From an uncultured Bacilli bacterium (GTDB lineage: Bacteria > Bacillota_I > Bacilli_A > RF39 > UBA660), in assembly GCA_905235045.1 (NCBI GenBank), contig CAJOJO010000008.1, positions 1 through 60,773 on the forward strand: DNA of 60,773 bases. The letters are read 5' to 3'. Both the position numbers and the translations under genes were made by a program. Positions 1 through 60,773 of the stretch are shown here, piece by piece. Each line of letters opens with the position of its first letter. Positions within the stretch are counted from its first letter, which is position 1. The notes under the pieces were generated by a model that did not search any database, had not been told where the DNA came from, and worked only from the letters and a program-made list of their open reading frames with translations.

Positions 1-124
1 TAGCATCAAATTCATTATCACTTGGAGTATATGTTACATCTTTTGAATCTATTAATGTAGCTGCATAAACTACTCCTCCACTTATTAATAGACCAGTTAA
101 TAAACCAAATACATATTTTTTCAT
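1..124 (-). CDS. 5' end of a secreted/surface protein gene that runs off the window (N-terminal signal peptide MKKYVFGLLTGLLISGGVVYA)
   Basis: ATG at 124..122 sits downstream of an AGGGA RBS and the poly-G promoter module. The frame stays open to position 1. KK is followed by a hydrophobic h-region. Confidence 0.55.
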   Translation of the reverse strand, partial: MKKYVFGLLTGLLISGGVVYAATLIDSKDVTYTPSDNEFDA

Positions 125-147
125 TTAATCCCTACTCTCTATTTATA

Positions 148-178
148 ATTATACCCCCCCCCCGACATAAAAAGTCAA
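148..178 (-). promoter_or_regulatory. Sigma-A-type promoter P1 with a G10 tract in the spacer
   Basis: The minus strand reads TTGACT(178..173)-TTTTATGTC-GGGGGGGGGG-TATAAT(153..148), a 19-nt spacer, followed by leader TATAAATAGAGAGTAGGGATTAA-ATG. Confidence 0.6.
154..163 (-). repeat. Homopolymer tract, C10 on the plus strand (G10 on the coding strand)
   Basis: Counted directly in the sequence. Only two such G/C runs were noticed in the whole AT-rich window. Confidence 0.95.
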
Positions 179-200
179 TGGGGAGTTATCATTGACTTTT
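169..200 (-). terminator. Intrinsic terminator-like hairpin whose descending arm contains the -35 of P1
   Basis: The minus strand reads AAAAGTCAATG-ATAACTCCC-CATTGAC-TTTTT. The stems are 174..180 and 190..196. Confidence 0.45.
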
Positions 201-827
201 TTATTGTTTTATAGGATCATTATTTGTAGATACAGAGCTGATGCTTTCAGGGTATTGTACCTTGCAACCATCAATAAGGTTCTGTATTTTCTTTTTATCT
301 TTATAAAGAATAATAGAAGACGTTTTTAATAAATTCTTTATATAATTATTAATTGATTTTCTACCATGTATTGACTTAATTATATTAGTATTAATTTCTA
401 TTGGAACAATTATTTGTTTTCTTTTATAATCAAATTGTTCAGTAAATACAATAATTTTATTTTCTTTAATTACTAATACAGGATTATTTAAATCGTTTAA
501 TGCTTCGTAAAATGTGTATTTACCCAACTGGTGATAACTATCATTTTTACCTAATGGGTATCCTAATTTTATAGCTTCTTCTTTAGATAAAATTGCATTT
601 CTTATTTCTCTTGGTGACGTTAATATTGGTTTATTATGTACAACTATTTTTCTTAATTTTTTTGGTACTTATTTTAAAATAACTTGATTTCCTTTTGGCA
701 TTTTACCATCATATATATTATCAATTATGTTATCTAATTGTTTTCTTATTTCAACATCATTTTTATTAAATATTTTTCTAAATGCTTTTTCATAATTTTT
801 ATTATAATTAATATTATTTTTTATCAT
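201..827 (-). pseudogene. Hypothetical gene of 209 codons interrupted by one in-frame TAA; alternatively two small ORFs
   Basis: ATG at 827..825 follows RBS AAGGAGGG (840..833). A single in-frame TAA lies at 671..669. The downstream 108-aa part (201..527) has only a TTG start and no RBS. Confidence 0.45.
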
Positions 828-884
828 CTAAACCCTCCTTAAGTTTTATATGATAGTACTTGCTTATGTCAATAAAAAAGAAAC

Positions 885-3020
885 TTATTTAAAAGCTTCT
901 TTTCTTGATAAATTTAATCTTCCACGTTTATCATATCCTAATGATTTAACTAGAATTTCATCGCCTACTTTAACAACATCAGAAGGTTTTTCAACTCTTT
1001 CATTAGCTAATTGAGAAACATGAACTAATCCTTCACATCCTGGCCATAATTCAACAAAGCAACCAAAGTCTTCTACTTTAACTACTTTACCTTTATAAAC
1101 TACACCATCTTCTACTTCTCTTACAATTGCTTTAATCATTTCAGCAGTACGCTCAATTATTTCTTTATCAGTATGATAAATAGTTACTTTACCATCATCG
1201 GCTAAATCAACTTTAACAGCGTTAACATCTTGAACAGTAGTAACATTTGATGCATCACAAATAATTTTCGTAATTGTTTCACCACCACGACCAATAACTT
1301 CTTTGATTCTATTTGGATCAATTTCAAAAATCATTGTTTTTGGTGCATATTTAGATACTTCTTTACGAGGTTCTTTAATTTGTGCTTCCATAACATCTAG
1401 TATCTCCATACGAGCTTGTTTTGCTTGCGCTAAAGCTTCTTTTAAGATTTCTTTAGTAATACCTTTTATTTTAATATCCATTTGTAATGAACAAATACCT
1501 TTTCTAGTACCACCAACTTTAAAATCCATATCTCCTAAATGATCTTCCATACCTTGAATATCAGTTAAAATAGTATATGATTTTTCATCTTTAGATGTAA
1601 TTAATCCCATAGCAATACCAGCAACTGGAGCTTTAATAGGTACACCTGCTGCCATTAATGACATACAACCTGCACAAATAGTGGCTTGACTTGATGAACC
1701 ATTTGATTCTAGGATTTCTGATACAACTCTTACTGTATAAGGGAATTCTTCTTCAGAAGGCATAACTTGTTTTAAACATCTTTCACCTAAAGCACCATGA
1801 CCAATTTCTCTTCTACCAGGGCTACCATATCTTCCTGTTTCACCAACTGAGAATTGTGGGAAATTATAATGTAACATAAAATGTTTTTCTGCTTCTAAAC
1901 TAATACCATCTAATGCTTGATATTCATTTAAAGCACCTAAGGTAGTTACTGCTAAAGCTTGGGTTTCACCACGAGTAAATAAAGCACTACCATGAGTTCT
2001 TGGAAGTAAGTCAATATCAGTTGAAAGTGGTCTAATTTCAGTCATACTTCTTCCATCAGCTCTAGTTTTTTCATTAACTGTGATATTTCTAAATATATCA
2101 TATTCAATACTTTCTAATACTAATTTAACTTTAGTAATTAAAATATTTAATTCTTCTTTATCTAATTCGCTGTTTTCTTCTTCATATTTTGCTACTACAT
2201 CTTCTTTTACTTGATCAATAGCAGCATATTTTTCTAGTTTTTCTTTAATACGCATAGCTTTATCTAATCTATCACTAGCTAATGCTTTTATTTCTTCTCT
2301 TAAAGAATCTTCTATTTCTAAGTGTTCATATTCCATTTTTTCTTCGCCAATTTCAGCAATGATTTTTTCTTGGAATTCACATAGTTCTTTAACAGCTTCA
2401 TGACCAAACATTAATGCTTCTAACATATCTTCTTCAGATACTTCTTTACTTCCTGCTTCAACCATGTTAATAGCTTTTTTAGTACCAGCTACTGTTAAGT
2501 CAATATCAGATAATTCTAATTCATCTGGGGTTGGGTTAATAATAAATTTACCATCAATACGACCTACTTTAACACCAGCAATTGGTCCATCAAATGGGAT
2601 TTTAGAAATACTTGTACAAAGTGAAGAACCAAACATAGCTGCTAATTCAGGAGAATTATCATTATCTACTGATAAAACAGTATTAACAACTTGAACTTCA
2701 TTTCTAAAGTCTTCTGGAAACATTGGACGCATTGGTCTATCTATCATCCGAGCAGCTAAAGTAGCAGCATCAGTTGGACGACCTTCTCTTTTAATGAATC
2801 CACCAGGTATTTTACCTACAGAATATAATTTTTCTTGATATAAAACCATTAATGGGAAGAAATCAGATAAAATATTGGCAGTTTTAGATACAACTACTGT
2901 TGATAAAATAACGGTATCACCATATCTTACTAATACAGCACCATGAGCTTGTTTCGCTAATTCACCATGTTCTACTACTAATTCTCTTCCTCTAAAATCT
3001 AATTTAAATACTTTTTTCAT
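885..3020 (-). CDS. pnp: Polyribonucleotide nucleotidyltransferase (PNPase)
   Basis: 711 aa with two RNase PH-like halves, then KH and C-terminal S1 ([19 protein letters not shown]). It lies downstream of rpsO as in most bacteria. Confidence 0.97.
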
Positions 3021-3035
3021 ACTATTATCTCTTTT

Positions 3036-7107: not shown

Positions 7108-7491
7108 TTAATCTTCATCTTCTATTTCACAACTGAAATCATCTGATAATTCGTATTTCCATTTTTTACCAGTTTTGGTTATATAGATTTCACTATCAAT
7201 GTCGATAATTTCTTTAGTAGCAGGGTTTTCAATTTCATCTTCAATATAACCACCCGTAATTAAGTCACCTAGGGTGATTGTTAATCTACCACCATCTTCA
7301 CTTGGTAGAGCAAATACATTATCAGCGCCATATGAACGAGCAGCTGCTAAAATATTATTCATTTGTGTTTCACATAATGATCCTTTATTTTGTCTTAATA
7401 TTTTTGATATTGCGGGAATTGTAATTAAACTTATTAAAGCAAGTACTACAATAACCCCAATTAATTCTGCTAAAGTAAATCCTTTTTTCAT
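7108..7491 (-). CDS. Type IV pilin-like / pseudopilin protein (prepilin N-terminal cleavage-methylation signal)
   Basis: 127 aa. MKKG|FTLAELIGVIVVLALISLI is the G-FTLxE class III signal plus a hydrophobic helix. Confidence 0.8.
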   Translation of the reverse strand: MKKGFTLAELIGVIVVLALISLITIPAISKILRQNKGSLCETQMNNILAAARSYGADNVFALPSEDGGRLTITLGDLITGGYIEDEIENPATKEIIDIDSEIYITKTGKKWKYELSDDFSCEIEDED

Positions 7492-7514: not shown

Positions 7515-7543
7515 ATAATACCACCTCCGAGCTATATTGTCAA
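7515..7543 (-). promoter_or_regulatory. Promoter P3, a paralogue of the poly-G module with an interrupted G tract
   Basis: The minus strand reads TTGACA(7543..7538)-ATATAGCTCGGAGGTGG-TATTAT(7520..7515), a 17-nt spacer, followed by leader TATGAATAGAAAGTAGGGTTTGT-ATG. Confidence 0.5.
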
Positions 7544-14148: not shown

Positions 14149-14177
14149 TTTACAGATTAATAAATATGTGCTAGAAT
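14149..14177 (+). promoter_or_regulatory. Plus-strand promoter for a candidate antisense small RNA
   Basis: TTTACA(14149..14154), a 17-nt spacer, then TAGAAT(14172..14177) with an upstream TGC extended -10. Confidence 0.45.
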
Positions 14178-14183
14178 GTATAT

Positions 14184-14289
14184 AGATGAGTTATTACTCA
14201 TAAAATAAATTAGGAACACTTAATATTAGTATGTTGGGTGTTGCCTGAATAATTTCAGTTCACCTAACAATTGTTAGGTGATTTTTTTC
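14184..14289 (+). ncRNA. Candidate ~105-nt small RNA convergent with the hydrophobic peptide gene (putative type I antitoxin)
   Basis: It is bounded by the promoter above and a perfect-palindrome terminator with a T7 run. It has no meaningful ORF. It is fully complementary to the 3' extension of the minus-strand transcript. Confidence 0.4.
14260..14288 (+). terminator. Intrinsic terminator (perfect 22-nt palindrome plus T7), efficient only in the plus direction
   Basis: TCACCTAACAATTGTTAGGTGA is followed by TTTTTTT on the plus strand. No U tract follows it on the minus strand. Confidence 0.6.
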
Positions 14290-14373
14290 TTATATGAATA
14301 TTACTAATAGCAATATTACAAGTAAGATTATGATAGAAAGTAGGAAAAAGATTAAAAAATCTTTCTTACTCAT
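14290..14373 (-). CDS. 27-aa hydrophobic peptide (candidate type I toxin; not in the ORF track)
   Basis: MSKKDFLIFFLLSIIILLVILLLVIFI. RBS GGAGGTGG lies 6 nt upstream of the ATG at 14373, and the stop is TAA at 14292..14290. Confidence 0.5.
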   Translation of the reverse strand: MSKKDFLIFFLLSIIILLVILLLVIFI

Positions 14374-14438
14374 AATACCACCTCCAATCATTTTCAGACT
14401 AAAGGCAATCACCCAACTATTTAAATGTTCCTAATATT

Positions 14439-14467
14439 ATTATACTGGTTATATATCTATTAGTCAA
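14439..14467 (-). promoter_or_regulatory. Promoter of the small-peptide transcript
   Basis: The minus strand reads TTGACT(14467..14462), a 17-nt spacer, then TATAAT(14444..14439), directly after the dgkA terminator hairpin. Confidence 0.5.
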
Positions 14468-14493
14468 CATAAAAAGCGAAAATTAATTCGCTT

Positions 14494-14892
14494 TTATTTT
14501 ATACATTCTATTATCTTAGGAACATAAATATTTATTGCGCCAATTAAAGCAGTTATCGATAAAATTAAAGTTGCGCTACTAGCTGCATCTTTAGCTATTT
14601 TAGCTAAAGGATGGGTTTTTAAAGTTTCTAAATCAACTACTGCTTCTATAGCTGTATTAATCATTTCACTAGCCATAACAAGTCCAATAATTAAAATAAC
14701 AAATAACCATTCAGTAGAATTTAAATCTAATAATATACCACTTATACTAGCTACTAAAGCAGCTAATATAATAATTATCATATTATGTTCATAACGAATA
14801 GCATAAATAATTCCATCAATTGCGTGAATAAAACTTTTACCATAACGTTCTACCGCATTTCCTGTATCCTTATTTCGTGATATTTGCTTCAT
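14494..14892 (-). CDS. dgkA: Diacylglycerol/undecaprenol kinase DgkA
   Basis: 132 aa, 3 TM. The position after ybeY matches Bacillus. Confidence 0.9.
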   Translation of the reverse strand: MKQISRNKDTGNAVERYGKSFIHAIDGIIYAIRYEHNMIIIILAALVASISGILLDLNSTEWLFVILIIGLVMASEMINTAIEAVVDLETLKTHPLAKIAKDAASSATLILSITALIGAINIYVPKIIECIK

Positions 14893-17808: not shown

Positions 17809-19701
17809 CTATTTAATAGATAACACATATTCTTTATCTAAAGTATAATGTTCATATCTCTTATTTAGTTTTACACTTGATGTTGGACTTGAGCCATCAT
17901 ATACAGTATCACTATATCTTACCCCAGTTACATTTAGAGATAATTTTTTATAGAAATCACCTTGATTGTTTTCAACAAGTTTACCAGTAACATATAAATA
18001 ACCACTATTTAATTCAAATATTGCATATAAATCACCAGTTGTATAATCTAGAAAATAATAACCAGGAGCTAATCTAGATGGATCATTTGTTTGATTCATC
18101 CTTCCAGCGAAACTTTTACCATCTGGTAAAGCACTGCTAATATTGAATGTATTAGAAGAATTTTTTTCATTAAATGATAAATCATCATAACCCCATGTTG
18201 ATATTTCTTTATATTGGATGATTGTAGTGATTTTCTTTGACGAAGTATCTAAAGATATTGAAGGCCTTACCCAATACCTTTGACCAGAATGGCTAACATA
18301 ACCATAAAGATATAAATCATCTTTTGGATATTCATATTCCCCAGCAGTAACTTTCACTGATTTAGCAGATACACCACCACTAGCACTTGTAACATAAGAA
18401 TAATAAGTTGATGATTTTAGTTCTTCTTGATTAGCATTAGTATATGTATTCAATACATAACCATCCGTTGTAAGTCCATAAACAGAAGTACTACCAGTCC
18501 CAGTATCATAATTCCATGAGTCACTTAATATGGTACTACTTGATGATATAGAATACGTAACAGCACCTGTTGTTTTATTTATTGACATATATCCTGGTAA
18601 AAGATAGTTTGTAGTTGTATAACCATTAGCACTTGTATTAAAACCTGTAAGCATTGTGTCAAAGTAAGCATAATGATTATTTACATCCTGAAAAGGTAAT
18701 TCATAAAAATTGCAATAATATACTGTAGAAGCACCAGCTGTAGTAGAACTATCACGATACATTACTGGATTAATATCTGTAGTTGTAACTAACTCCCACG
18801 CATTAGTACTTGCATTCCATTTAAATGTTTTAAGATAATAACGATAATCAGTTATTAAATCACTAGCATCATTCAGATAATAATACATAACACCTATCAC
18901 AGTTGGACTAAATCTAAATACAGGAAAAGGACTATTCCAACAGCCACCATTACTATATGTTATCTTTGCTGTATCTGTGCCTACTAAAAAGGTATCATAA
19001 GCATCCGAATTTAATTTTTTTATATCTATATACATAGTAAAATATTCCGCAGTTGCTGTTTTATAATCATATCTAAATTTCACTATATCGTTTGGAATAG
19101 TAACAGTATTTACTTTAAACATTGGTCCTGATGATATTGATTTAATACCAGTTGCTAACTCTTCAAATGATTTATTTTCATTTATTTCGTATCCTCTACT
19201 CTTAATAGCATTTGCTATCTTTTCTTTGCCAGTTATTATTTCTTCATTACAAGCATTTATATCTTCCACACATTTGTTTGTAACACTTATTATTCCATCA
19301 ACAGTAATGCCATCGCATATTCCATCTCCTATGGTAGCTTCTTTTTGATTTAATTCTTTTTTAGCATACCATTTCCCGTTATCAATACAAATTGCTGATT
19401 TATTATCTGTTGTGATTAACACCATACCATGCTCTATTGAACCTTTATAGCTTAATTTCTCATAATCATCTATTTGCTTTCCATTACTAAATTCTAATAA
19501 TCGATTATTTTCTGCATCTTGCATATTTATTTGATAATAATAATTAGCAGCTTCAGCAATCCCTTGCACACTTGCTTTTAAAGCACCTTTTTGAGCTTTT
19601 TCAATCACATCACTTATTAATGGTATTGATATTAATGTAACTATTGCTATCAATACTATTACCGCTAATAATTCAATTAACGTAAATCCTTTTTTCTTCA
19701 T
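17809..19701 (-). CDS. Large type IV pilin-like surface protein (prepilin signal plus ~520-aa Y/T/S-rich domain of unknown fold)
   Basis: 630 aa. MKKKG|FTLIELLAVIVLIAIVTLISIPL is the prepilin signal. No family was recognised for the remainder. Confidence 0.8.
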   Translation of the reverse strand: MKKKGFTLIELLAVIVLIAIVTLISIPLISDVIEKAQKGALKASVQGIAEAANYYYQINMQDAENNRLLEFSNGKQIDDYEKLSYKGSIEHGMVLITTDNKSAICIDNGKWYAKKELNQKEATIGDGICDGITVDGIISVTNKCVEDINACNEEIITGKEKIANAIKSRGYEINENKSFEELATGIKSISSGPMFKVNTVTIPNDIVKFRYDYKTATAEYFTMYIDIKKLNSDAYDTFLVGTDTAKITYSNGGCWNSPFPVFRFSPTVIGVMYYYLNDASDLITDYRYYLKTFKWNASTNAWELVTTTDINPVMYRDSSTTAGASTVYYCNFYELPFQDVNNHYAYFDTMLTGFNTSANGYTTTNYLLPGYMSINKTTGAVTYSISSSSTILSDSWNYDTGTGSTSVYGLTTDGYVLNTYTNANQEELKSSTYYSYVTSASGGVSAKSVKVTAGEYEYPKDDLYLYGYVSHSGQRYWVRPSISLDTSSKKITTIIQYKEISTWGYDDLSFNEKNSSNTFNISSALPDGKSFAGRMNQTNDPSRLAPGYYFLDYTTGDLYAIFELNSGYLYVTGKLVENNQGDFYKKLSLNVTGVRYSDTVYDGSSPTSSVKLNKRYEHYTLDKEYVLSIK

Positions 19702-19724: not shown

Positions 19725-19754
19725 ATTATACCCCCCCCCGACAGGCCTTGTCAA
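19725..19754 (-). promoter_or_regulatory. Sigma-A-type promoter P2 with a G9 tract in the spacer
   Basis: The minus strand reads TTGACA(19754..19749)-AGGCCTGTC-GGGGGGGGG-TATAAT(19730..19725), an 18-nt spacer, followed by leader TATAAGTAGAAAGTAGGAGTTAT-ATG. Confidence 0.65.
19731..19739 (-). repeat. Homopolymer tract, C9 on the plus strand (G9 on the coding strand)
   Basis: Counted directly in the sequence. Confidence 0.95.
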
Positions 19755-20744: not shown

Positions 20745-21314
20745 TTAATTTTTTATTTTATAAAAACAGGAAATTACTTTAGCAAATTTATATAAAATAA
20801 TATTACTTTTATTTATAGCAAAACTTTTCCCCAAAGCTTTTCCACCAATAGTTAATGCCGCAATAATAGCCGAAATAACTAAAACCGTAAAAAATGCATC
20901 AAAGTGATAATGAGCGGATATATTAAGGGCAATTATAGAACCAGCGCCACCTGATATAATCCCACATACATCTCCTACTACGTCGTTACAAAAACTTGAT
21001 ACTAATGCCGCATTTTGTTTAAATTTTACAGCTATATCAGCTCCTTTTATTTTTCTTGAATTCATTGAATTAAAAGGAACAATATCAGCGGCTGTTACAG
21101 CAACCCCAATAATATCAAAGATAATACCAATAATAATAAAAATAACTAAAACAATTAAACCAATTATAATATTAACATTAGGAATAACTGATTCTGATAA
21201 CATACTAAATATAAAGGAAAGCATAAAAGCAGTTATCGTTATTTCAATAATCCATTTATAATTTGTAAATGCTGTTTTATCTTTTTCTAGTTGTTTTTTA
21301 AAAACCTTTTTCAT
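20745..21314 (-). CDS. 4-TM membrane protein, OapA-like (OLE-associated protein A candidate)
   Basis: 189 aa with four predicted TMs and a DVVGD (DxxxD) motif in TM3. It lies directly downstream of the large structured RNA. The OapA assignment is from memory of the family, not from a search. Confidence 0.55.
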   Translation of the reverse strand: MKKVFKKQLEKDKTAFTNYKWIIEITITAFMLSFIFSMLSESVIPNVNIIIGLIVLVIFIIIGIIFDIIGVAVTAADIVPFNSMNSRKIKGADIAVKFKQNAALVSSFCNDVVGDVCGIISGGAGSIIALNISAHYHFDAFFTVLVISAIIAALTIGGKALGKSFAINKSNIILYKFAKVISCFYKIKN

Positions 21315-21327
21315 AATTTTCTCCTAT

Positions 21328-21942
21328 AAAAAAAAGAAATAATTTCTTTTATAAATAATAATGGCGATTAATATAGTTAACTTTATGCCTTAGGTCAAGT
21401 AGAATTTCTCTAGTTTTTACTTATCGTTACCAATAAGCGGTTCCCCTTTAAAAAAACCAATATATTGTCACCAAATATATGACTTGATTACCACTTAGTA
21501 CATACTGCAATCCTACACTAACTCCACTCTAGGAATTTTCTTCAACAACTATTACTATTAGTTCTTTTTTGCAAATACAATTTCATATAGCAATAACAGT
21601 AATCATTTGGCCTAAATCATACTATCTGTCTATAATCCCAAGTATTCACGCAAGACAAGCTACGCTACTCATAAGTTGCCCCACGAAGTAGGTTTAATCC
21701 TAAATCGTCACAAGTCCATCAACTTACGTGTATAGGCTTATAACAAGTTCAGGTCTCCACGACAGTTGGGTCAGTATCGTATGCCATTACGGCCGCCCAA
21801 GTTGTCTTTCTTCCAGCACTCACCCTAAACTGGGCGTATAAAGCAAGCACCAGAAGCTTCACAGATGTGCTCTTTAATGGATTTTTAGCCCCATCTTCAT
21901 AGTAATTAAGTTGACTAGAATAATGTGCCATTACTTATTTAT
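21328..21942 (-). ncRNA. Large (~600 nt) structured non-coding RNA, OLE-like
   Basis: An 830-nt gap holds only a spurious 60-aa ORF. It has its own TTGACA-17-TATATT promoter. The core (about 21640..21900) is visibly GC-enriched against AT-rich surroundings. A 13-bp closing helix pairs 21940..21927 (AAAUAAGUAAUGGC) with 21365..21353 (GCCAUUAUUAUUU). Internal hairpins are present, e.g. GACAACTTGGG...CCCAACTGTC. A terminator lies at 21328..21351. Confidence 0.55.
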
Positions 21943-21948
21943 ATGTAA

Positions 21949-57435: not shown

Positions 57436-58461
57436 TTAAATTTTTTGAAATTTATTCTTTGGTACTGTTATAACTGGACGAATACCAACATCAGCAGTAT
57501 AAACACGTGTATCATTTAAACTACCATTAAAGCGTATATACCAAACAGTATACACATAGTTTTGAACAAGTCCTAATGGATCTTGTGTCCAATAACCACC
57601 ATTTGTTGAATCAGATGAAGCAATTTCACAACCATTTGAAACACAATCATATGTATAATCATATAACCATGAATATGCACTTGATCCTTTACTAGTAGCT
57701 CTTTGCGTAGTCGTTAGACTATCAAAATAGTATCCACTATTTACATCAGTTATATCAAATTCTGTTCTACCTATTATTTTATTTAACTCAGATGTTGTTA
57801 TGAGCGTTGTTCCTAGGCTGGAATCCCAATTTAAATTTTGTATTGCTTCATAAGCACCACTTAATTCATACGCCACATTTGTATTTGATGAATTCCATGC
57901 AATACTATTTTCTGTATTATGATCTAGTATCATTTTATAGTTGTCTCCACTATTATCAAATATATACCATTTCATACATCCACTTGTACCTGATCCTACT
58001 GTTGAATTTTCTTCATCACATACTTCATCTATATCACTAGGATTAAAATAAGCAATTCCCTTAACACCTTTTTGTTTAACGTTATTAGATGAATATATAT
58101 CTTTCAAATCAACTATGGATCTATCTGGACATTCTACAATTCGATAACTATTTGTATTTCCTATTTTAACTTCAATACACTTATCAATATATTTACTTAC
58201 ATCTATAGGTATTAAACCTTCTTTATCGATATCAGATATTAAAATATCATATATGACACCAATTTGTTTATCATAGTCATTACCATATCTTTCCATATAT
58301 TGATCAGCTGAACTATATAATATATCTTTAGTTGCTTGATCCACTTCTACTTCTTTTTTTTCAAAATTAGATATTAAGTTTGGAAAAATAAGAATTGCTA
58401 AAAAACTTAATAAAAGAATAATTGCTAATAATTCTATTAAAGTAAATCCTTTATTCTTCAT
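57436..58461 (-). CDS. Type IV pilin-like surface protein with a ~290-aa C-terminal domain
   Basis: 341 aa. MKNKG|FTLIELLAIILLLSFLAILIFP is the prepilin signal. It lies immediately downstream of the glycine-rich protein gene. Confidence 0.8.
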   Translation of the reverse strand: MKNKGFTLIELLAIILLLSFLAILIFPNLISNFEKKEVEVDQATKDILYSSADQYMERYGNDYDKQIGVIYDILISDIDKEGLIPIDVSKYIDKCIEVKIGNTNSYRIVECPDRSIVDLKDIYSSNNVKQKGVKGIAYFNPSDIDEVCDEENSTVGSGTSGCMKWYIFDNSGDNYKMILDHNTENSIAWNSSNTNVAYELSGAYEAIQNLNWDSSLGTTLITTSELNKIIGRTEFDITDVNSGYYFDSLTTTQRATSKGSSAYSWLYDYTYDCVSNGCEIASSDSTNGGYWTQDPLGLVQNYVYTVWYIRFNGSLNDTRVYTADVGIRPVITVPKNKFQKI

Positions 58462-58504: not shown

Positions 58505-58528
58505 AATAAAAAGAGCTAAAAGCTCTTT
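58505..58528 (-). terminator. Intrinsic terminator after the glycine-rich protein gene
   Basis: The minus strand reads AAGAGCT-TTT-AGCTCTT-TTTATTT. Confidence 0.65.
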
Positions 58529-60773
58529 TAATTTCCTATATATGTTATTTTAGCATAGCCATTAGCATAGCCATTACCATCATTACCAGCTTGTTCTGTA
58601 CCATATAATGGATGATTTACACCAATATACGTACCTTTTGATGTTGTCCACTTATAACCTGTTCCATCTACCATTTTTGTGTTAGTAAATTTATAGCCTG
58701 TATATGATATAGAATCTGATCTTTGTGATAAATCATAATTAACTGCCACACATCCATCATGACCAGATATATATGAAGAACCTCCTGATGCTTGCCCACC
58801 AGCATAGGCACCGCCAGCTCCACCATACCAGCCAGAACCTCCACCAGGATTATCATATGATTGATATGATGCTCCACCATATCCAAAACCACCTGGAGTA
58901 GCCGGATATGAAGCCCCTGAATTTATTGACTTACCACCAGTTGTCTGAGTAGCTACTGAAGCAGCATATGCAGCTGAACTTGAACCAGTTTCACCAACAT
59001 AACTTTCTAATCCTCCGGCTGCGCCACCTTTACTTGCCCAAGCAGAACCTGAGTGTTGAGCAGCTCCAGAGCCAGCTCCAGCTACCATTATTCTTGTTTT
59101 TAAAGACTCGATTTCATTCCATATTTCATTAGATGAAGTAGAGGATATTCTTACATCAGTAGCTCCGCCACCTGAAGTTGAATTACCGTTACCAATAGCA
59201 CCGCCATTCCATCCTGGTGTCTTAGTTGCGCCGCCTTGACCTCCTACATAAATATATAATGTTTGGCCTTTATTAACATTCATTTCACCACTTGTGTAAG
59301 CTCCATTACCACCTATATAAGTTGTACTGTAGTCTCCTCCGGAAGCTCCCCACAATTCAAATTTATATTTTCCCGTATATGGTGCGGTAAATGTTTGATA
59401 TGTTCCCGTTAATTGATAACGCCATACTTTATGCTTTTGAAAATATAAATCATCATATTGTTCATTAGTATATGTAGCAAATTTACTAAATGTGATTCTT
59501 GCATAACCATTTCCATCATTACCAACAGTTGGTGAACCACTACTATAAGATGGAGTACCCATATAAATCCCTTTTATTGTAGTCCAATTATATCCTTGAC
59601 CATCTATCATAATCGTATTTATAAAATATTTTCCAGTAAATGATTTACTTGTCCCATTTAAGTCATATGGATAAATGCATCCATCGTGACCAGAAATATA
59701 TGAAGAACCTCCTGATGCTTGTCCGCCAGCATAAGCGCCACCAGCACCACCAAACCAACCAGATCCTCCGCCAGGATTATCATATGATTGATACGATGCG
59801 CCACCATATCCAAAGCCACCTGGAGTAGCCGGATATGAAGCTCCTGAATTTATTGACTTACCACCAGCTATTTGCGTAGCTACTGAAGCAGCATATGCAG
59901 CTGAACTTGAACCAGTTTCACCAGCATAACTTTCTAATCCTCCGGCTGCGCCACCTTTACTTGCCCAAGCAGAACCTGAGTGTTGAGCAGCTCCGGAACC
60001 AGCTCCAGCTACCATTATTCTTGATTTTAAACTTTCTATTTCATTCCATACTGTAGGAGAAGCAGTGTGAATAGTTCTTACATCAGTAGCCCCGCCACCT
60101 GATGATGAATTACCATTACCAATTGCGCCACCATTCCAGCCTGGTGTTTTAGTCGCACCACCTTCACCACCTACATATACATATATTTCTTCATCAACAT
60201 TTAAATAAATATCACCTTTTGTATAGGCACCATTACCACCTACATATGTAGCGTTATAATCGCCACCTGAGGCTCCCCATAATTCTATTGTATAATATCC
60301 TGAGTAAGGAGCCGTAAAAGTTTTATATTCACCACTATAATCAAAATCCCATACGTATGAATCTCGAATATAGCTTAATTGAACCCATTCATTATTATAT
60401 ACATAAGCTTCTTTTAGTTGCCAATCACCACTCAAGTATTGAACAGCATAACCAATTCCTATTTTTGATTTTTTGTTTTCAACAACGTTTGTTGTTTCAC
60501 TACTTTGTACTAGCCAAACCATTCCTTCTTTTAATTCAGTGGGAGGTAGTTGTGATGAAGAAACATAATAATCAGTTATTTTATCATTTGTTATAACAGC
60601 TATTGTTCCTGCGTTTGATTTGTTTGGTAAATCAGCAGTTGTTGCATAAGCTTTTACATTTAATCTTAGACCAGTATATGATGCATTACCAATCGTAACA
60701 TATCCTAGTAATTCTTCGTCATATTCACCAGAACATACTCCTTCATCTAATTCTAACTCTTTACTATCTAAGT
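58528..60773 (-). CDS. Large glycine-rich surface protein with two tandem ALK/LTK-GRD-like (Pfam Gly_rich type) domains; the 5' end lies outside the window
   Basis: The frame is open from 60773 down to the stop at 58528, whereas the ORF track starts only at an internal Met. Each ~309-aa unit reads FTAPYSGYYTIELWGASGGD...GGNGAYT...VYVGGEGG...GWNGG...GGGATDVR...AGAGSG... Confidence 0.8.
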   Translation of the reverse strand, partial: LDSKELELDEGVCSGEYDEELLGYVTIGNASYTGLRLNVKAYATTADLPNKSNAGTIAVITNDKITDYYVSSSQLPPTELKEGMVWLVQSSETTNVVENKKSKIGIGYAVQYLSGDWQLKEAYVYNNEWVQLSYIRDSYVWDFDYSGEYKTFTAPYSGYYTIELWGASGGDYNATYVGGNGAYTKGDIYLNVDEEIYVYVGGEGGATKTPGWNGGAIGNGNSSSGGGATDVRTIHTASPTVWNEIESLKSRIMVAGAGSGAAQHSGSAWASKGGAAGGLESYAGETGSSSAAYAASVATQIAGGKSINSGASYPATPGGFGYGGASYQSYDNPGGGSGWFGGAGGAYAGGQASGGSSYISGHDGCIYPYDLNGTSKSFTGKYFINTIMIDGQGYNWTTIKGIYMGTPSYSSGSPTVGNDGNGYARITFSKFATYTNEQYDDLYFQKHKVWRYQLTGTYQTFTAPYTGKYKFELWGASGGDYSTTYIGGNGAYTSGEMNVNKGQTLYIYVGGQGGATKTPGWNGGAIGNGNSTSGGGATDVRISSTSSNEIWNEIESLKTRIMVAGAGSGAAQHSGSAWASKGGAAGGLESYVGETGSSSAAYAASVATQTTGGKSINSGASYPATPGGFGYGGASYQSYDNPGGGSGWYGGAGGAYAGGQASGGSSYISGHDGCVAVNYDLSQRSDSISYTGYKFTNTKMVDGTGYKWTTSKGTYIGVNHPLYGTEQAGNDGNGYANGYAKITYIGN
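58560..60413 (-). repeat. Intragenic tandem duplication, 2 x 927 bp
   Basis: The constant offset is 927 nt (e.g. 58751 vs 59678, 58949 vs 59876, 59114 vs 60041). There is one mismatch in ~118 nt over 58949..59066 vs 59876..59993, and the remainder is clearly more diverged. Confidence 0.85.

Follow-up and report, generated by a model that had tools for sequence, protein, structure and literature searches.

Switching of promoters by homopolymers in the spacer is known mostly from pathogens, namely Neisseria, Treponema and Mycoplasma. In Mycoplasma hyorhinis, a poly-A tract is present in every vlp promoter (Citti and Wise, 1995, as summarised in PMC10502178). Neisseria meningitidis porA and Treponema pallidum tp0126 carry a poly-G tract of about 8-11 residues between the -35 and -10 hexamers, and in tprE, G, J and L the tract lies next to them; in promoters of the porA, tp0126 or tpr type, 7-11 G were reported within isolates, and transcription was maximal with a spacer of 17 nucleotides (nt) (PMC7864442). 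In the gut commensal Bifidobacterium breve, slippage of a G tract controls a sortase-pilus, i.e., a surface appendage or adhesin, and this tract is conserved across related species (PMC9187656). Here we describe a promoter with ten consecutive G between its hexamers (G10), located at one end of contig CAJOJO010000008.1 from an uncultured Bacilli bacterium (lineage RF39). The window analyzed is the whole 60,773-nt stretch (60.8 kb, 26.8% GC). We consider, with a probability of about 0.8, that this tract mediates slipped-strand transcriptional phase variation of a surface-protein family, in a manner similar to Vlp and porA. In the literature on RF39 or on homopolymer phase variation in metagenome-assembled genomes (MAGs), we found nothing relevant for this uncultured lineage.

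The promoter, hereafter site 1, is read on the minus strand. Contig L087 belongs to the same strain type as the window, and contigs L001 and L002 to a second strain type. Site 1 comprises the following features, given from the gene to the upstream hairpin:

2 to 124, minus strand: first 41 codons of a secreted or surface protein of 158 amino acids (aa), MKKYVFGLLTGLLISGGVVYA|ATLIDSKDVTYTPSDNEFDA..., the remainder lying beyond the window start.
125 to 147, minus strand: conserved 23-nt 5' untranslated region (5'UTR) TATAAATAGAGAGTAGGGATTAA with Shine-Dalgarno-like AGTAGGGA, nearly invariant among paralogues.
148 to 153, minus strand: -10 hexamer TATAAT, whose first T is absent in L001 and L002 (giving GATAAT and an 18-nt spacer).
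154 to 163, minus strand: G10 homopolymer (C10 on the plus strand), the putative slippery part of a spacer totalling 19 nt.
164 to 172, minus strand: fixed 9-nt part of the spacer, TTTTATGTC, always 9 nt long, both in this organism's other cassettes and in those of L007, L062 and L063.
173 to 178, minus strand: -35 hexamer TTGACT, read directly (5/6 positions in common with TTGACA), 9 nt 5' of the tract as in the paralogous cassettes.
169 to 201, minus strand: hairpin and T-run, AAAAAGTCAATG-ATAACTCCC-CATTGACTTTTT, called as terminator-like (-13.1 kcal/mol, z = -3.05).

The initial annotation of this DNA had proposed the order TTGACT, poly-G, TATAAT, ATG with a 19-nt spacer, followed by a signal-peptide protein at the window edge. 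Direct reading of the minus strand gave the same order and spacing, and the 41-codon open reading frame (ORF, 124-2) starts with a signal-peptide-like N-terminus; the Shine-Dalgarno-like element GAGAGTAGGGA lies at 139-129 and the ATG at 124-122. Our promoter scan takes spacers of 16-18 nt only and therefore skipped this site. Two long G/C homopolymers had been claimed for the window, their identical promoter position being taken as an argument against chance. A scan for G/C runs of at least 6 in the 60.8 kb found just the C10 at 154-163 and a C9 at 19731-19739 (site 2, described below), the next longest run being 5. The search for G9 returned 3 overlapping matches, all at those two sites, versus 0.02 expected from dinucleotide shuffles. 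Also, both sites share the pattern TGTC-Gn-TATAATTATAA.TAGA.AGTAGG, for which 100 shuffles gave 0 chance matches. The initial observation was confirmed.

The -35 hexamer had further been placed inside an arm of a terminator hairpin, and TTGACT (178-173) does lie within the 3' arm of the hairpin. This overlap is peculiar to the site 1 copy and stands outside the conserved cassette design. The hairpin is likely the terminator of the upstream transcript (pnp and a remnant related to the phage MuF C-terminal domain, MuF_C), insulating the promoter, and it probably stops read-through from pnp, which would leave the switch alone to set expression. Two short ORFs of 52 and 108 aa are located between pnp and the promoter (window 201-827, minus strand). 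The 108-aa ORF matches the phage MuF C-terminal domain (4.6e-11) and is probably what remains of a larger gene; in the L001/L002 strain type, it carries a 12-aa insertion.

Through this 108-aa ORF (204-527, minus strand), we found the 47-kb contig L087, which spans the window start and is 99.93% identical to window 1-3027. Extension of the contig, a check proposed in the initial annotation, thus yielded an intact gene and not a fragment: the full gene (L087 2904-3380) encodes 158 aa, MKKYVFGLLTGLLISGGVVYAATLIDSKDVTYTPSDNEFDASNVETALNELYEKVNDKK...YYFAIEE, behind the same TTGACT-9 nt-G10-TATAAT promoter. The order on L087 is the pnp side, the 158-aa gene, then rpmB (on the opposite strand) and dnaE. 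Inserted between pnp and rpmB, the gene is therefore monocistronic, and the hairpin lies on its upstream side. The terminator status of an A/T-only hairpin 3' of the gene lacked statistical support (z = -0.82). The closest full-length orthologue (P0002, 79% identity) presents the same rpmB/dnaE synteny.

The leader of the 158-aa protein resembles a Sec signal peptide with an AXA-type cleavage site, VYA|A (..GGVVYA|ATLIDS), and neither a lipobox nor a conserved Cys was seen in the leader in the family alignment. The full sequence contains no G-F-T-L-x-E motif, and no N_methyl match was obtained for the 50-aa N-terminal fragment or for paralogues L007a and L007b. Pfam gave no domain for the protein, and no Pfam family covers its relatives. 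In the C-terminal coding part, Tandem Repeats Finder detected no repeat, its sole match being a 12-nt, 1.9-copy repeat in the signal-peptide codons (L087 2921-2943). A profile search of the PDB returned nothing significant, and AlphaFold2 on the family alignment gave a pLDDT (predicted local distance difference test) of 42 and a pTM (predicted template modelling score) of 0.26, too low for use. In PHROGs, the N-terminal motif is a weak match to one phrog of unknown function, and some paralogue C-termini match tail, tail-fibre or virion structural phrogs.

A word-index search retrieved 20 homologues of the 158-aa protein, all of 158-268 aa. Their N-terminal ~55 residues are nearly invariant (..ATLIDSKDVTYTPSD.xF.xSNVExAL.ELY) and the remaining ~100 are unalignable; two family members contain F5/8 type C domains. 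Together with the phage-tail-type PHROG matches, these discoidin-type lectin domains suggest, although only suggestively, that the C-termini may be binding heads. The family is large, with 2174 cluster representatives in a profile search at E<=1e-3. The 51-aa N-terminal fragment used as a protein query gave no candidates. Searches with the exact or degenerate cassette pattern gave 0 matches in the genome-contig collection and 0 in the metagenome-contig collection, and the window organism is thus absent from these two collections at that stringency. The relatives of its PNPase all come from gut MAGs of uncultured organisms, with the labels Bacilli, Tenericutes, Mollicutes or Erysipelotrichaceae. 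The organism has the sporulation genes CotE, YqfD, SpoIIM and GPR.

Two further promoters of the window share the design of site 1, the one at 7543-7489 being a third cassette copy missed in the initial annotation:

19725 to 19754, minus strand: site 2, TTGACA-AGGCCTGTC-G9-TATAAT, with an 18-nt spacer and a promoter-scan score of 12/12.
17809 to 19701, minus strand: site-2 gene, encoding a 630-aa protein with a prepilin-type N-terminal methylation motif MKKKGFTLIELLAV (Pfam N_methyl, 1.8e-6).
7515 to 7543, minus strand: site 3, TTGACA-ATATAGCTC-GGAGGTGG-TATTAT, with an interrupted G tract and a spacer of exactly 17 nt.
7108 to 7491, minus strand: site-3 gene, encoding a 127-aa prepilin-type protein MKKGFTLAELIGV..., with G-F-T-L-x-E by direct reading.

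Site 3 has 3 mismatches to the cassette core (0 such matches expected), and its promoter is identical in the three assemblies that cover it (window, L001 and L002). The site-3 protein had no Pfam match at E<=0.001. From its interrupted tract, site 3 looks like a degenerate, non-slippery derivative that would be locked ON. With its 17-nt, invariant spacer, it serves as a natural internal control.

The same cassette of ~60 nt (-35, 9 nt, Gn, TATAAT, short 5'UTR, ATG) appears to head at least nine genes of apparently one organism, about seven of them paralogues of the 158-aa gene and the others encoding prepilin-type proteins. Its form is TTGAC[A/T], exactly 9 nt, G9-G11, [T]ATAATTATAAATAGAGAGTAGGGATTAA, ATGAAAAA, and pure tracts give spacers of 18 or 19 nt. 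The paralogue genes are dispersed over at least five loci. A four-gene tandem array is located upstream of ligA on L088, and also on L102/L103; loci A and B (L089-L095, L101) lie between a T2SSF/prepilin-peptidase/mgsA-like block and a XerD-like recombinase gene, and locus C is on L096-L099. Nearly every paralogue with an assembled upstream region is preceded by the cassette. In the L088 array it is found at 3/4 genes, the fourth beginning at the contig end, and it precedes both L103 genes and 2/3 complete genes of the L102 array. The sole exception is the copy at L102 260-335, in which the G tract is replaced by TGGAAT (TTGACA-AACATGTTA-TGGAAT-TAATTATAAATAG) and which may be decayed or inactivated. 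The longest exact stretch shared by site 1 with any paralogue is 54 nt and corresponds to the cassette, from -46 to +8 relative to the ATG. The cassette is better conserved than the adjoining coding sequence, where synonymous drift is seen. The paralogue contigs come from the same samples as window-identical contigs, have a similar GC content and have no housekeeping genes in common with the window, which fits with all of them apparently being parts of one genome.

In the locus B gene, the C-terminal half differs between L091 and L092-L095 by ~45 substitutions in 255 nt (alignment columns 2352-2607), and the flanks of this hypervariable segment (3 kb) are nearly identical. Such a pattern fits C-terminal halves evolving as mosaics, by mosaic replacement or by diversifying selection on an exposed domain. 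In L092, a 1-nt deletion near the 3' end alters the C-terminus of the same protein (170 vs. 163 aa).

Tract lengths were compared between assembly consensuses, not among reads. The initial annotation had reasoned that a tract without length heterogeneity would argue against a switch; differences were present at locus B, at the P0005 gene, at locus C and at site 1. The locus B tract is G10 in L091, L092 and L093, and G9 in L094 and L095. The haplotypes of L092-L095 are only 0-2 substitutions apart over 0.9-3.5 kb, yet two of them (L092/L093) have G10 and two (L094/L095) have G9, the latter length occurring in both ERZ1667847 and ERZ27234816. The P0005 gene has G9 in L102 and G10 in L103, and locus C has G10 followed by TATAAT in L096 and G11 followed by ATAAT in L097 and L098. 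At site 1, the window and L087 have G10 and TATAAT, and L001 and L002 have G10 and ATAAT, with an interval 1 nt shorter. Locus A (G10 in 6/6 contigs, one of which begins within the tract) and site 2 (G9 in 4/4 assemblies) are constant. The tract differences are therefore locus-specific, and random consensus error is an unlikely cause. As far as these consensus sequences indicate, the loci vary independently across samples.

In the Gn-ATAAT allele, the -10 has a G in place of its first T or lacks this T, and the tract thereby reaches into the hexamer. This allele recurs at three loci (L001/L002 12894-12909; L088 695-710; L097/L098 1462-1478) and would be either a real recurrent mutation or a base-calling effect following the homopolymer. 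Also, contigs from several samples and assemblers end (L001, L002, L084, L085) or start (L088, L090/L095, L099, L103) at or inside cassette-driven genes. The window and contigs L001 and L002 break off after the first 96-150 nt of the site-1 ORF, L084 and L085 both stop 630 nt into the site-2 gene, L088 begins at the ATG of an array gene, and L095 and L099 begin inside the tract. Contigs starting inside tracts are an indirect hint at several tract lengths within a population. A long exact repeat was rejected as the cause of the breaks in the site-1 gene, as the longest shared stretch (54 nt) is below the assemblers' k of 141. Strain-level C-terminal divergence and tract heterogeneity, while unproven, are more likely causes than a repeat.

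Related genomes present the same design. In 937 kb from 82 loci, we found 14 G runs of at least 7, all on the gene-sense strand, and 8-10 of them lie between a -35 and a -10 before surface-protein genes. L007 carries G10 and G9 (spacers of 19 and 18 nt) before members of the same N-terminal family, L062 a G8 with a 17-nt spacer, L063 a G10 promoter tract, L022 a G10 twice before prepilin-type genes (G-F-T-L-x-E motif), and L070 a G8 before a 688-aa glycine-rich protein. The pure tract is kept across species with completely diverged flanks. In L068 (6017-6063), a G8 is located within the coding sequence, near its 5' end, and truncates a surface-protein ORF at 19 aa; with G9, and only then, an ORF of 585 aa with a signal or transmembrane segment is restored, i.e., the frame is out by one G. 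L068 is thus a phase-variation candidate that would represent a translational version of the same strategy. More distant family members without the tract (L010 8600-8700 and 10040-10110; L100 2651-3001) have ordinary promoters and a divergent XRE-type helix-turn-helix gene upstream, and the spacer of the L010 promoters can be read as 17 nt. This suggests that classical repression may have been replaced by a simple sequence repeat (SSR) switch in the lineage of the window.

From what was observed, namely the anatomy, the intact gene and its family, tracts that differ from sample to sample and an interrupted copy that is stable, we infer a slippage mechanism together with its ON length, its reversibility and its biological pay-off. 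As in SSR-controlled, transcriptionally phase-variable promoters, a homopolymer of at least about 8 nt is located between -35 and -10, and the tract differs between close relatives with unchanged flanks, at the level of assembly consensuses. The G10 tract would be the variable spacer part of a sigma-A-type promoter acting as the sole driver of the 158-aa gene. Slipped-strand mispairing at replication would add or remove G residues and so change the distance between -35 and -10, to 17 nt at G8, 18 at G9 and 19 at G10. This change of spacing would switch or dim transcription in a heritable and reversible way, each cell displaying a random subset of the variable surface proteins. The pay-off could be evasion of antibody or phage, or switching of adhesion. 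If the optimum is 17 nt, the spacing present at site 3, L010 and L062, the promoter would be fully ON with G8, intermediate with G9 and low or OFF with G10. With this optimum, site 1 (19 nt) would therefore be low or OFF and site 2 (18 nt) intermediate, and the former is most likely in the low/OFF state as assembled. From the general behaviour of sigma-70/sigma-A promoters, a 19-nt spacer would be expected to be OFF or weak. Sporulation sigma factors were considered and rejected, since the hexamers are near the sigma-A consensus and unlike the generally known sigma-E/F/G/K/H motifs.

Several points weigh against this interpretation. Variation is known between consensuses only, and homopolymers are error-prone in short-read assemblies. 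Site 1 itself has G10 in both window-type assemblies, and in the second strain type the difference lies at the junction of the tract and the -10, not in a clean G count. The assignment of the loci to one organism rests on the samples they share, on their GC content, on the identity of the cassettes and on housekeeping genes that do not overlap, not on binning. Also, the pure tracts of this organism give 18 or 19 nt, never 17. Either most loci are low or OFF with a minority of ON cells, which would be expected for combinatorial antigen families, or the optimum is 18 nt when the spacer contains a G/C tract. The latter leads to an explanation that we regard as improbable but worth keeping in mind, in which the tract is a graded rheostat or a regulator-dependent element, a shared factor or an unusual G/C-tract geometry allowing G9/G10 tuning around an 18-nt optimum. 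Besides the 18/19-nt spacers at pure tracts, it draws on the sequence 3' of the -10, which is almost invariant among paralogues, beyond the coding sequence. The poly-C tracts of Bordetella fim promoters offer a parallel. So do the poly-G promoters of tpr genes, which are co-regulated by a CRP homologue (PMC7864442). However, the -35 and -10 are near-consensus for sigma-A (12/12 at site 2), so that an activator should be unnecessary, and no regulator was identified; moreover, the locked copy and the tractless relatives sit at exactly 17 nt, as does the G8 of L062.

The error-proneness of homopolymers of 10 or more is also the starting point of a second explanation, in which the tract is merely the static, inherited spacer of a duplicated promoter, the 1-nt differences being consensus or assembly errors, and there is no phase variation. 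The constancy of site 2 and of locus A across all their assemblies would be as expected. Nevertheless, we judge this even less probable than a rheostat. The differences at the other loci are locus-specific and recur across independent samples and different assemblers, locus B G9 having been recovered twice. The pure tract persists across diverged species, though a genome of 27% GC should erode it, and the one copy with an interruption has the optimal spacing of 17 nt. The coding G8 of L068, out of frame by exactly one G, and the contigs that start within tracts (L095, L099) also speak against a static spacer. Poly-G read tails are a known artefact of two-colour Illumina sequencing, and one could imagine the tract having been built into the assembly in this way. 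But the tract lies within long contigs, flanked on either side by unique sequence, and it was recovered from over 10 independent assemblies, which stem from several studies and assemblers, at a constant promoter position and always on the sense strand; the artefact is effectively refuted. Slipped-strand phase variation of the promoter thus remains our preferred explanation.

This switch resembles Vlp in several respects. The account in PMC10502178 describes for Vlp a multigene family of single-gene transcription units, with a highly conserved promoter in which homopolymer indels switch transcription; the same organization is found here, and the switching would be analogous. That account likewise describes a conserved leader and N-terminus, a variable C-terminal surface part and possible combinatorial expression, and the present family has paralogues with their own tract promoter, a conserved N-terminus and a variable C-terminus. 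By the MAG labels of its relatives, the host also belongs to the low-GC Bacilli/Mollicutes neighbourhood. Unlike in Vlp, the tract is poly-G and not poly-A, and stands out in a 27% GC genome. The signal peptide is of the AXA type without a lipobox Cys, and the proteins are thus not lipoproteins; C-terminal tandem repeats are lacking, and no sequence relationship was found (no Pfam match). Moreover, the host has sporulation genes, and the loci are dispersed (at least five) rather than forming one cluster. The window system would operate in the manner of Vlp, while standing outside the Vlp family.

Like porA and tp0126, the genes described here are surface-protein genes with poly-G in their promoter. 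In contrast to porA and the tpr genes, which are single loci or tpr paralogues of Gram-negative or spirochaete pathogens, they belong to an uncultured gut commensal of Gram-positive type, and a strict modular cassette has been copied before at least nine genes of two unrelated protein types. The tracts of B. breve are intragenic and act by frameshift, at the level of translation, whereas those of the window lie in the promoter spacer, where they would act on transcription; L068 is of the intragenic type. A likeness to type IV pilins or pseudopilins is seen in the site-2, site-3 and L022 genes (G-F-T-L-x-E), and a prepilin peptidase gene and a T2SSF platform gene adjoin loci A and B. Some of the cassette-driven genes can therefore be counted among the pilins. 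The site-1 protein and its paralogues cannot, as they have a Sec-type leader (..GGVVYA|AT..) without a prepilin motif.

The mechanism proposed is thus a classic one, in a lineage and a protein family for which it had no earlier description: the logic known from pathogens would recur here, in the form of a modular cassette present in multiple copies, in a lineage of gut commensals that is uncultured and represented by MAGs alone. At a broader level, we would give about even odds to the idea that an uncultured, spore-forming gut Bacilli lineage runs a Vlp-like "phasome", in which a portable poly-G cassette independently toggles at least nine genes, G9/G10 being parked low or OFF and the rare G8 being ON. 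These genes would encode an unannotated family of small secreted proteins that occurs metagenome-wide (the 2174 representatives above), in which an invariant N-terminal stalk carries exchangeable heads resembling lectins or phage tails; other genes of the set would encode prepilin-type proteins, and more distant relatives would control the family by XRE-type repressors instead. If true, this would be the first contingency-locus system described for the lineage, with SSR switching in place of classical regulation. Phase variation through the cassette would imply a strong, fluctuating selection on the surface from immunoglobulin A, phage or niche adhesion, and the cassette would mark exposed, selected proteins in an unannotated family of more than 2000 cluster representatives. 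It may also account for the fragmentation of assemblies at cassette-driven genes. The signature -35, 9 nt, Gn, -10 could be used to mine metagenomes for phasomes, and read-level tract counts at cassette loci could follow population dynamics in vivo.

At window 57436-58461 (minus strand), a 341-aa protein combines an N-terminus of the prepilin type with a C-terminal domain resembling DUF6273, and its promoter is ordinary, with a 17-nt spacer and without tract. The product of the adjoining gene (58528-60773, minus strand) exceeds 664 aa and has two glycine-rich domains of the ALK/LTK type; a homologue of this product is found in L070 behind a G8 promoter.

We also detected a repeat element of ~345 nt at window 14158-14501 (minus strand), between dgkA-like and cdd-like genes. 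It contains its own promoter with a 17-nt spacer, a very hydrophobic 27-aa ORF MSKKDFLIFFLLSIIILLVILLLVIFI and a hairpin. Direct copies (75-84% identity) are found on both sides of the locus C gene (L096 1108-1440 and 2002-2339). This element might represent a type I toxin-like module; alternatively, it might be a small element that is mobile or involved in recombination.

Finally, a full-length OLE (Ornate Large Extremophilic) RNA is encoded at window 21345-21947 (minus strand; 392 bits, model positions 1-616 of 616), its host being here a gut MAG lineage and not an extremophile. On the same strand, 3' of this RNA, the gene at 20745-21314 encodes a 189-aa multi-pass membrane protein with no Pfam match, which could be OapA, the partner of OLE RNA.

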